Source of the DNA: a phage | DNA length: 64,000 nucleotides | Sequence record: OZ470804.1 | Reading direction: 5' to 3' (one strand) | Shown here: in pieces, positions 60,963-62,360 of the stretch | Position numbering within the stretch: position 1 is the stretch's first letter | How the letters are laid out: the number at the start of each line of letters is the position of its first letter | Translations under genes and position numbers: made by a program | The notes under the pieces: generated by a model | What the model was told of the DNA's origin: nothing | Seen by the model: only the letters and a program-made list of their open reading frames with translations | Database searches by the model: none

Positions 60963-61039
60963 GCACCTATAGCCCAATTGGTAGAGGCAGCAGACTTAGA
61001 ATCTGCTCAGTGTGAGTTCGAATCTCTCTAGGTGTACCA
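60963..61039 (+). tRNA. tRNA, anticodon UAG (Leu codon CUA) on class-I-length scaffold; isotype uncertain
   Basis: anticodon arm GCAGA-CTTAGAA-TCTGC, T-loop TTCGAAT, CCA encoded. Confidence 0.5.
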
Positions 61040-61046
61040 AATTAAT

Positions 61047-61122
61047 GCAGGTGTAGCAAAATGGTTATGCGGCTGACTCTTAATCAGTAAGACGATGGGT
61101 TCAATTCCCTCCACCTGTACCA
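61047..61122 (+). tRNA. tRNA, anticodon CUU (Lys)
   Basis: anticodon arm GCTGA-CTCTTAA-TCAGT, T-loop TTCAATT. Confidence 0.55.
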
Positions 61123-61128
61123 GACATT

Positions 61129-61204
61129 GGGGATGTAGTTTACATGGTTAAAACATAAGTTTTGCAAACTTAAGTACAGGGTTCAATTCCCTGCTTCTCC
61201 ACCA
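61129..61204 (+). tRNA. tRNA, anticodon UGC (Ala)
   Basis: anticodon arm TAAGT-TTTGCAA-ACTTA, T-arm CAGGG-TTCAATT-CCCTG. Confidence 0.6.
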
Positions 61205-61210
61205 ATTAGT

Positions 61211-61285
61211 GCATCCATAGTTTAAACGGGAAAATTACAGTCTTCCAAACTGAGGTTGAGGGTTCGATTCCCTCTGGATGCTCCA
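61211..61285 (+). tRNA. tRNA, anticodon UCC (Gly)
   Basis: perfect acceptor GCATCCA/TGGATGC, anticodon loop CTTCCAA, T-arm GAGGG-TTCGATT-CCCTC. Confidence 0.7.
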
Positions 61286-61291
61286 AACAAT

Positions 61292-61368
61292 GCTGCTTTC
61301 GTATAATTGGCTATTACACATCCCTTGTAAGGATGGAAATGCAGGTTCGAGTCCTGTGAGCAGCACCA
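61292..61368 (+). tRNA. tRNA, anticodon UGU (Thr)
   Basis: anticodon arm CATCC-CTTGTAA-GGATG, T-arm GCAGG-TTCGAGT-CCTGT. Confidence 0.65.
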
Positions 61369-61464
61369 ATTCAGAGGTCAAGTGAAAGACCGCTTTGAGT
61401 CAACTGAAGACCGTAACAAATTCCACGGAGTTGAGTTAGCGGCACAACTCCAGACCTCTTTCAT

Positions 61465-61539
61465 ACTCGCTTAGTTTATATGGTAAAACATCACCCTTAC
61501 AAGATGAAGAAAAAGGTTCAAGTCCTTTAGTGAGTACCA
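61465..61539 (+). tRNA. tRNA, anticodon UAC (Val)
   Basis: anticodon loop CTTACAA, T-arm AAAGG-TTCAAGT-CCTTT. Confidence 0.6.
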
Positions 61540-61540
61540 T

Positions 61541-61618
61541 GTTCCAGTATCCCAATTGGCAGAGGATGCAAGCTCAAACCTTGTATTAGTGACGGTTCGA
61601 ATCCGTCTTGGAACACCA
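61541..61618 (+). tRNA. tRNA, anticodon CAA (Leu codon UUG) on class-I-length scaffold; isotype uncertain
   Basis: anticodon arm GCAAG-CTCAAAC-CTTGT, T-arm GACGG-TTCGAAT-CCGTC. Confidence 0.5.
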
Positions 61619-61637
61619 ATTTTAAGAGGCTATTTAG

Positions 61638-62195
61638 ATGAGATACTTAAAGTATGCTTCATGGATTTTCTTAGCTTTGTTAGAGCCATTTGCAGCAATC
61701 TTAGCAGTTATCTTAGCACCTTTTGTAGTTCCATTCTACAGTGAGAAGAAAGGACACTTACCTTTCGGGTTCAGATGGATGGAGACCTATGACAACCCGA
61801 TTGATGGTGATGAAGGCCACGTTAAAAGATGGGCTAATATTAGATGGATTGGTAAACTAGGTGTCTACATGCAAAGAGTCGGATGGCTCTGGAGAAACAA
61901 AGCTTATAACTTCTCTTACCATGTATTAGGAAGAGATGTAAGAGATGTTACTAAGTGGAAAGGTAATATCAACGTAAGTTCTGACCCTGAAGATAATCAG
62001 ACAGGTTATCTCCTAATGTGGAACAGTAATGCTTGGGGATTATTTGCTTTTATACCATCAATTAAAGTCTTTGGTAAACAATTCTACTGGAGAATTTATG
62101 TTGGATGGAAACTAAAAAGTGTTGTCCCAGAAGAAAGAGCATTCTCAAGGGAAAGAGTTATGTTGGCATTCTTTATTCATCCACTAAGAAAGTAA
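61638..62195 (+). CDS. membrane protein embedded in tRNA cluster
   Basis: N-terminal TM helices IFLALLEPFAAILAVILAPFVV; Trp-rich 185 aa ORF. Confidence 0.5.
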   Translation: MRYLKYASWIFLALLEPFAAILAVILAPFVVPFYSEKKGHLPFGFRWMETYDNPIDGDEGHVKRWANIRWIGKLGVYMQRVGWLWRNKAYNFSYHVLGRDVRDVTKWKGNINVSSDPEDNQTGYLLMWNSNAWGLFAFIPSIKVFGKQFYWRIYVGWKLKSVVPEERAFSRERVMLAFFIHPLRK

Positions 62196-62203
62196 AGATT
62201 TAA

Positions 62204-62279
62204 AGGGGATTAGTTTACAAGGTTAAAACCTCGGTCTTTGAAATCGAAGAAGTTGGTTCAATTCCAACATCCCCCGCCA
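62204..62279 (+). tRNA. tRNA, anticodon UUG (Gln)
   Basis: anticodon arm TCGGT-CTTTGAA-ATCGA, T-arm GTTGG-TTCAATT-CCAAC. Confidence 0.6.
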
Positions 62280-62281
62280 AT

Positions 62282-62360
62282 GCTCCATTACTCCAATTGG
62301 CAGAGAGGCCAGACTTAAAATCTGTGTTATGTATCGGTTCGAATCCGATATGGAGTACCA
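62282..62360 (+). tRNA. tRNA, anticodon UAA (Leu codon UUA) on class-I-length scaffold; isotype uncertain
   Basis: anticodon stem CAGA/TCTG loop CTTAAAA, T-arm ATCGG-TTCGAAT-CCGAT. Confidence 0.45.

Follow-up and report, generated by a model that had tools for sequence, protein, structure and literature searches.

Three tRNA genes in a 64,000-nucleotide (nt) stretch of phage DNA from sequence record OZ470804.1 (the window) have leucine anticodons but lack a long extra arm, and they are probably ordinary type I tRNA-Leu, charged by the enterobacterial host's leucyl-tRNA synthetase (LeuRS) and supplying UUA, UUG and CUA/CUU decoding for an AT-rich genome. The window is that of a Felixounavirus (i.e., a Felix O1-like phage), the region being 97% identical to Escherichia phages ECML-1 and SP22. 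A sequence-only reading had noticed the three genes by hand-folding, with anticodons UAG, CAA and UAA, lengths of 77 to 79 nt and short variable arms, and this observation is correct in every detail, since ARAGORN returns identical coordinates and anticodons:

60963-61039, + strand: tRNA-Leu(UAG), 77 nt with CCA (ARAGORN; Rfam RF00005, 58.9 bits)
61541-61618, + strand: tRNA-Leu(CAA), 78 nt with CCA (ARAGORN; Rfam RF00005, 44.0 bits)
62282-62360, + strand: tRNA-Leu(UAA), 79 nt with CCA (ARAGORN; Rfam RF00005, 47.5 bits)

All three genes pass the gathering score of the Rfam RF00005 tRNA model (29 bits) with a full-length match (model positions 1-71), and all encode their CCA, positions 1-73 amounting to 74 (UAG), 75 (CAA) and 76 (UAA) nt. 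Their ARAGORN cloverleafs have acceptor stems of 7 base pairs (bp), D stems of 3 bp and D loops of 11 nt which conform to CAAUUGG(U/C)AGA, with CAAUUGGUAGA in tRNA-Leu(UAG) and CAAUUGGCAGA in both tRNA-Leu(CAA) and tRNA-Leu(UAA). The anticodon loops are CUUAGAA (UAG), CUCAAAC (CAA) and CUUAAAA (UAA), each with the U33 and A37 that the hand-folding had placed there, whilst the T loop UUCGAAU and the discriminator A73 are common to all three genes and a G1-U72 pair is found in tRNA-Leu(UAG) and tRNA-Leu(UAA). The variable regions, counted with a 5-bp anticodon stem, are UCAGU (5 nt, UAG), AUUAGU (6 nt, CAA) and GUUAUGU (7 nt, UAA), and no extra stem-loop can form in any of them in the ARAGORN folds. 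The genes are type I tRNA-Leu in the sense of PMC6614811 (i.e., a leucine anticodon in a tRNA whose variable loop is short), and none has a class II body, with its variable arm of more than 10 nt. The suspicion raised by the sequence-only reading that its folding had mis-assigned the genes can be dropped, as ARAGORN gives the same anticodons and the same short variable region.

Neither the genes nor the type of molecule is new, the former having been annotated since 2010 and the latter being known in mitochondria and in Streptomyces. Among Felix O1-like phages (Felixounavirus and relatives), 292 records match the region and many of them annotate three tRNA-Leu here, and tRNA-Leu(CAA) is 100% identical in at least 160 phage records. 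The 2010 Felix O1 genome paper, from which the word 'variable' is absent, lists the Leu genes TAG (78 nt, Cove score 52.2), CAA (78 nt, 46.2) and TAA (79 nt, 57.9). Older tRNAscan-SE annotations (Felix O1, phiEa104) give Leu for most of these genes, the UAA gene of phiEa104 being 'Undet'. In the 2025 paper on Shigella phage Sf14, the isotype models of tRNAscan-SE 2.0 put Leu at the top for TAG (Leu 67.4, then Ile2 65.7 and Lys 63.4), CAA (Leu 49.1, next Lys 36.1) and TAA (Leu 60.2, next Lys 54.2); these scores are the published Sf14 values, carried over to the genes of the window through near-identity, CAA being identical in both phages, UAG differing by two bases of the D loop and UAA by one base. 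The same paper gives three anticodon-loop differences from the host for tRNA-Leu(UAG), and mentions neither variable arms nor tRNA classes nor LeuRS. Automated tools, both ARAGORN and these published isotype models, point to no anticodon or isotype other than the one first proposed. No description of short-armed tRNA-Leu in phages was found in open-access papers and preprints, and an earlier account elsewhere is possible. Two points appear to be absent from the searchable literature, namely that enterobacterial phages carry type I tRNA-Leu, and that this form is common in phage tRNA clusters and actinobacterial chromosomes, with an A9/C13 core of its own.

If the host LeuRS is to charge these molecules, it should find in them what it recognizes in its own substrates. 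Leucine identity in Escherichia coli depends on A73, A15-U48, G18G19, A20a and tertiary pairs that join D loop and T loop, and leucylation is uncorrelated with the sequence or folding of the extra arm, armless variants still being active (PMC9976931). Aligned with E. coli leuW, leuX and leuZ, the phage genes share U8, A14, A15, G18, G19, the closing AGA of the D loop, U48 (just ahead of the T stem), the T loop and A73, and the sole large gap in this alignment coincides exactly with the extra arm. The set of nucleotides expected at the elbow (U8-A14, A15-U48, G18G19 in the Leu position, an A two bases past G19, and U54-A58) is present in all three, and the geometry of the D arm in the ARAGORN folds is the same in the phage genes, in leuW, leuX and leuZ and in the tRNA-Leu of phage T4. 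Every listed positive E. coli leucine identity element is present in the three phage tRNAs.

The short form is not an accident of one genome. It is kept across the Ounavirinae, three short Leu genes being found also in Mooglevirus and Kolesnikvirus. In the latter, Erwinia phage phiEa104 and Enterobacter phage phi63_307 have three tRNA-Leu (CAA, AAG and UAA) of 77-78 nt with the same D arm and A73, and with acceptor and anticodon stems that are very different but still pair; the extent of stem divergence among Ounavirinae tRNA-Leu can be seen in GUUCCAG/CUGGAAC as against GGCGUAA/UUACGCU. Both Kolesnikvirus phages have, in addition, a tRNA to which ARAGORN gives an undetermined two-base anticodon 'tt' (locus positions 2526-2598 and 2530-2602) and which tRNAscan-SE calls 'Undet' in phiEa104. 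Nothing similar to the short tRNA-Leu(UAG) gene was found in 5,426 complete E. coli genomes.

Viral contigs at large tell the same story. The IMG/VR database was scanned with a pattern made of the Leu D-loop motif, an NAR anticodon and the T loop at class I spacing, which matched at least 120 loci; among the matches listed, 123 of 124 raw pattern matches fold as tRNA-Leu by ARAGORN. In the listed loci, selected as they were for short spacing, tRNA-Leu of up to 80 nt outnumber long ones by 174 to 22, whilst tRNA-Ser is long in 95 of 96 cases and tRNA-Tyr in 37 of 41. In loci whose Leu genes are all short, 82 of 82 Ser and 33 of 36 Tyr are long, and the loss of the arm is specific to Leu among the class II families. 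When spacing was left free, 16 class I stretches were found against 104 of class II (about 13% short), and loci with at least five tRNAs give 12 short to 52 long pattern matches and 23 to 83 for all Leu genes (about 20%), on the assumption that the loci used again were the earlier scan's first sixteen. The second possibility left by the sequence-only reading, that the phage carries unusual Leu-decoding tRNAs, is supported, but the short form is no peculiarity of this phage, as it makes up some 13-20% of the tRNA-Leu on viral contigs. The GC content of the short-Leu loci ranges from 0.26 to 0.65 (median 0.40), so that actinophages alone cannot account for them. BLAST of 56 diverse short viral tRNA-Leu, concatenated, against cultured phages matched seven records, the named ones being actinophages, and we attribute this small number to sequences too diverged for BLAST.

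Conservation and covariation in these viral genes go in the same direction. At positions left unconstrained by the pattern, short viral tRNA-Leu have A73 in 172/172, U48 in 170/172, U8 in 172/172 and the D arm with a 3-bp stem and an 11-nt loop in 151/172, and long Leu tRNAs show the same profile; in other class I tRNAs A73 reaches 56% and U48 35%, and a 3-bp D stem with AAUUGG occurs in just 9 of 1231. A gap-free alignment of 76 distinct short tRNA-Leu of 74 nt has 98.8% of its cells paired and two-sided changes at 19 of its 20 pairs, spread over all four stems, with a covariation score of 1.04 compared to 0.24 for shuffles and 0.13-0.20 for slid partners, in a set that was pre-selected by ARAGORN, which demands a cloverleaf.

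Short tRNA-Leu genes are not confined to viruses either. The same class I-spaced pattern scanned in one genome per bacterial species gave at least 120 matches, and nearly all the chromosomal ones listed lie in Actinomycetota (Nocardia, Rhodococcus, Mycobacterium, Corynebacterium, Arthrobacter, Gordonia, Bifidobacterium). With three exceptions, those listed are tRNA-Leu of 73-78 nt (UAA, CAA, UAG and others), and 95 of 120 have no other tRNA within 8 kb. Lone short chromosomal tRNA-Leu in Actinomycetota thus go far beyond the single Streptomyces case in the searchable literature, that of S. coelicolor, whose type I tRNA-Leu(CAA) is charged by its single LeuRS (PMC6614811). The premise of the sequence-only reading that bacterial tRNA-Leu is class II holds for E. 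coli leuW, leuX and leuZ, but fails for the type I genes of Streptomyces and Actinomycetota chromosomes.

Phage and actinobacterial short genes also resemble each other in the core of the molecule. Short tRNA-Leu have A9 together with C13 in all 5 of the scorable genes from Ounavirinae, in 81 of 133 from other viruses and in 108 of the 120 listed from actinobacteria, A22 being a further part of this core, whilst 110 of 113 long tRNA-Leu have G9 with G13 or A13. The class II core is nevertheless retained in 30 of the 133 viral short forms, which suggests several independent losses of the arm among them.

The anticodons of the three genes fit the codons that the phage uses. In 64 long open reading frames (ORFs) of the window (15,347 codons, 38.7% GC), leucine is encoded by UUA (25%), UUG (14%), CUU (28%), CUC (7%), CUA (11%) and CUG (15%). 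In E. coli, about half of the leucine codons are CUG and about 4% are CUA, and the UAA, CAA and UAG isoacceptors, which are minor species, have a single gene each. The codon comparison proposed by the sequence-only reading, made against established host figures, shows a phage richer in CUA than its host, and the three anticodons cover codons that the phage over-uses, far more than its host does. This agrees with the Felix O1 genome paper, where Leu[TTA] is among the codons helped by phage tRNAs, and with the Sf14 paper, where TTA and CTA usage differs significantly from that of the host.

In the interpretation that we favor, the three tRNA-Leu would be transcribed together with the + strand tRNA array in which they lie and then trimmed to their encoded CCA ends. 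The host LeuRS would add leucine by reading A73 and the shape of the D/T-loop elbow (U8-A14, A15-U48, the placement of G18G19, and U54-A58), neither the anticodon nor the extra arm being read. The UAA tRNA would then decode UUA and UUG, the CAA tRNA UUG, and the UAG tRNA CUA and other CUN codons, alongside the class II set of the host in the infected cell. In origin, the three tRNAs may descend from a bacterial tRNA-Leu, or be built like one, except for the arm, which would have been lost repeatedly in phage tRNA sets because Leu is probably the only bacterial class II family whose synthetase can dispense with it.

Of the other explanations, the one that survives best is that the loss of the arm was adaptive and not just tolerated: the phage would have shed it to escape host enzymes that recognize class II tRNAs by their long arm (MenT/AbiE-type nucleotidyltransferase toxins or other tRNA-targeting defences), and its tRNAs, still charged by the host LeuRS, would go on decoding leucine once the tRNA-Leu of the host is disabled. 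We consider it unlikely. Its sole footing is an inference made in a preprint, that AbiEii, like MenT3, prefers class II tRNAs; in its favor one may add that differences between phage and host tRNAs have been linked to nuclease escape in the Sf14 paper, and that phage tRNA clusters often contain the short form over the whole range of GC content given above, with no counterpart in complete E. coli genomes. However, the tRNA-Ser and tRNA-Tyr of the same phages keep their arms and would still be exposed, and in Actinomycetota the short form is an ordinary chromosomal gene for which no defence explanation is needed. Moreover, we know of no enterobacterial defence system that targets tRNA-Leu via its arm. 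Bacterial Schlafen nucleases were also considered as a class II-specific threat and were rejected, since the one that has been studied lacks type II specificity, its targets being Lys, Ala, Met and other tRNAs.

Charging by the host LeuRS, on the other hand, is where the preferred reading has to face several contrary points. The type I tRNA-Leu(CAA) of Streptomyces is not charged by the E. coli LeuRS, which is described as charging type II tRNA-Leu only and whose C-terminal domain touches arm nucleotides 47f-47i in the crystal with tRNA (PMC6614811), and in Aquifex removal of the arm mainly lowers affinity. The S. coelicolor substrate may, by analogy, share the A9/C13 core of Felix-type and other actinobacterial type I tRNA-Leu. 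To these must be added a U-U mismatch inside the T stem of tRNA-Leu(UAG), A37 in the anticodon loop of the same tRNA (60997-61003) where E. coli leuW and the Shigella tRNA-Leu(UAG) have G37 (an m1G site), the pre-selection behind the covariation score, a minimum-energy structure for tRNA-Leu(UAA) that is not a cloverleaf (RNAfold) and weak folding z-scores (-0.5 to -1.8). Single-sequence folding is uninformative for tRNAs and was set aside as evidence either way. As for the Streptomyces result, the variable loop of that substrate is A44-C45-A46-G47-C48 (PMC6614811); with C48 it is without the A15-U48 pair found in the Felix tRNAs, and the negative result is not directly transferable to them. 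Because of that result, nevertheless, charging by the host LeuRS is something that we infer and do not take as fact.

It could then be argued that the phage molecules are structured RNAs which the host LeuRS leaves uncharged (a decoy, a primer, a regulator, or decaying relics), given the failure of the E. coli enzyme on the only natural type I tRNA-Leu tried, the A9/C13 core common to Felix-type and other actinobacterial type I tRNA-Leu, and the weak thermodynamic support for folding. This is less likely again than escape from host attack, and we regard it as improbable. A73, U48, U8 and the Leu D arm are kept in essentially all members of a family of great diversity, and without recognition by LeuRS this would be difficult to account for; the anticodon loops show no damage, U33 and a purine at position 37 being in place, the CCA is encoded, compensatory changes are found in all four stems, and the anticodons fit codons over-used by the phage. 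That the genes are class I tRNAs of another amino acid, their anticodons shifted to Leu codons, is very improbable indeed: many other Sf14 tRNAs do show isotype/anticodon inconsistencies in tRNAscan-SE 2.0, and Ile2 and Lys run close behind Leu for the UAG gene of that phage, but no isotype model outscores Leu for any of the three, the D arm matches that of tRNA-Leu in particular, the alanine determinant G3-U70 is absent from all three window genes, and synthetases that read the anticodon would reject UAG, CAA and UAA under established identity rules.

The three genes lie in a tRNA array which is syntenic with those of Sf14 and phiEa104, and in which the other class II families keep their extra arm:

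58065-63555, + strand: tRNA array of 22 genes (ARAGORN) and, lying among them, four ORFs (two HNH endonuclease, two DUF)
58556-58643, + strand: tRNA-Tyr(GUA), 88 nt, class II extra arm kept (ARAGORN)
60153-60242, + strand: tRNA-Ser(UGA), 90 nt, class II extra arm kept (ARAGORN)
63383-63475, + strand: tRNA-Ser(GCU), 93 nt, class II extra arm kept (ARAGORN)

One HNH endonuclease ORF (60509-60961, + strand; 150 amino acids, Pfam HNH 23.2 bits) leaves a single base between its end and tRNA-Leu(UAG). In most relatives the alignment begins only at query position 456, so that this ORF is missing from them, and from this comparison it resembles a mobile element inserted in the array. The other HNH ORF, which is weaker, is found at about 59572-59919; the ORF between Leu(CAA) and Gln(UUG) encodes a DUF7338 membrane protein, and Phe is followed by a DUF7217 ORF. 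Directly upstream of the array, 56484-57899 (+ strand) encodes a DUF2828/DUF7788 protein of 471 amino acids whose Sf14 counterpart is annotated as 'RNA-binding protein', and a link to tRNA handling is possible. Promoter-like and terminator-like matches are no commoner than in shuffled sequence.

Two further elements of the array depart from normal tRNA structure. At 59476-59557 (+ strand), just upstream of an HNH ORF and at the site where Sf14 has a normal tRNA-Arg(UCU), there is a tRNA-like element that ARAGORN misses and that narrowly passes the gathering score in Rfam with 31.2 bits; its anticodon loop is CUUCUAA (UCU), G3 pairs with U70, a normal D arm is missing, and some 22 additional nt precede a good T arm. 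The tRNA-Lys(UUU) is framed at 59076-59148 by ARAGORN (73 nt) and at 59073-59145 by Rfam, both on the + strand and both with several unpaired positions in the acceptor stem, and this gene (59073-59148 overall) may be degenerate.

In textbooks and in the sole dedicated study (PMC6614811), the long arm is taken to mark nearly all bacterial tRNA-Leu. Yet a common group of coliphages and Salmonella phages has three tRNA-Leu without it, and the form makes up about one fifth of the tRNA-Leu in phage tRNA clusters. This offers a natural and easily tested case of what a bacterial LeuRS needs in its substrate. Were enterobacterial LeuRS found to charge these tRNAs efficiently, the published statement that it acts on type II only would be overturned, and the A9/C13 core could then be what allows the structure of a tRNA-Leu to do without the arm. 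The genes also provide compact natural Leu tRNA scaffolds for engineering, and might confuse annotation pipelines. More generally, they raise the question of whether the conflict between phage and host has moulded the shape of tRNAs beyond the anticodon loop.

Among the known systems closest to these genes are E. coli leuW (UAG), leuX (CAA) and leuZ (UAA), which have the same anticodons, A73, U8-A14, A15-U48, D-arm geometry and T loop, and with which the phage genes have the D-loop sequence AAU(U/C)GGUAGA in common. They differ in being 85-87 nt long, with an extra arm and with G9 and G or A at position 13, as opposed to no arm, A9 and C13 in the phage; indeed, every tRNA-Leu of E. coli has the long extra arm that the three phage tRNAs are without. 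Other coliphages resemble the present one in carrying tRNA-Leu within tRNA arrays interspersed with homing endonucleases, but the tRNA-Leu(UAA) of T4 (87 nt) and the tRNA-Leu(UAG) of T5 (85 nt) are class II and keep the arm. The T5 tRNA has A37, as has tRNA-Leu(UAG) here, and the same 11-nt D loop with one stem pair fewer.

Armless tRNA-Leu are known from two other sources. The arm-deleted 'minimalist' E. coli tRNA-Leu of Larkin et al. (2002) are laboratory constructs whose leucylation by the E. coli LeuRS depends on A73 and on D/T-loop tertiary pairs, whilst animal mitochondrial tRNA-Leu(UUR) is a natural type I tRNA recognized through A73 and A14 without a long arm (PMC9976931). The mitochondrial case differs from that of the phage, however, in being organellar, loose in structure and served by a dedicated LeuRS. 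The type I tRNA-Leu of S. coelicolor and other Actinomycetota differ in their turn, since they are cellular genes and the actinobacterial LeuRS does not use A73 as an identity element, the S. coelicolor example having C48, whereas the phage genes work, if they do, in an enterobacterial host whose LeuRS has been seen in nature with class II substrates only. Nonetheless, they are like the phage genes in their Leu anticodon, class I body, 5-nt variable loop and A73, and the actinobacterial short genes share with the Felix tRNAs the 3-bp D stem, the 11-nt D loop, A9, C13, A22 and U48.

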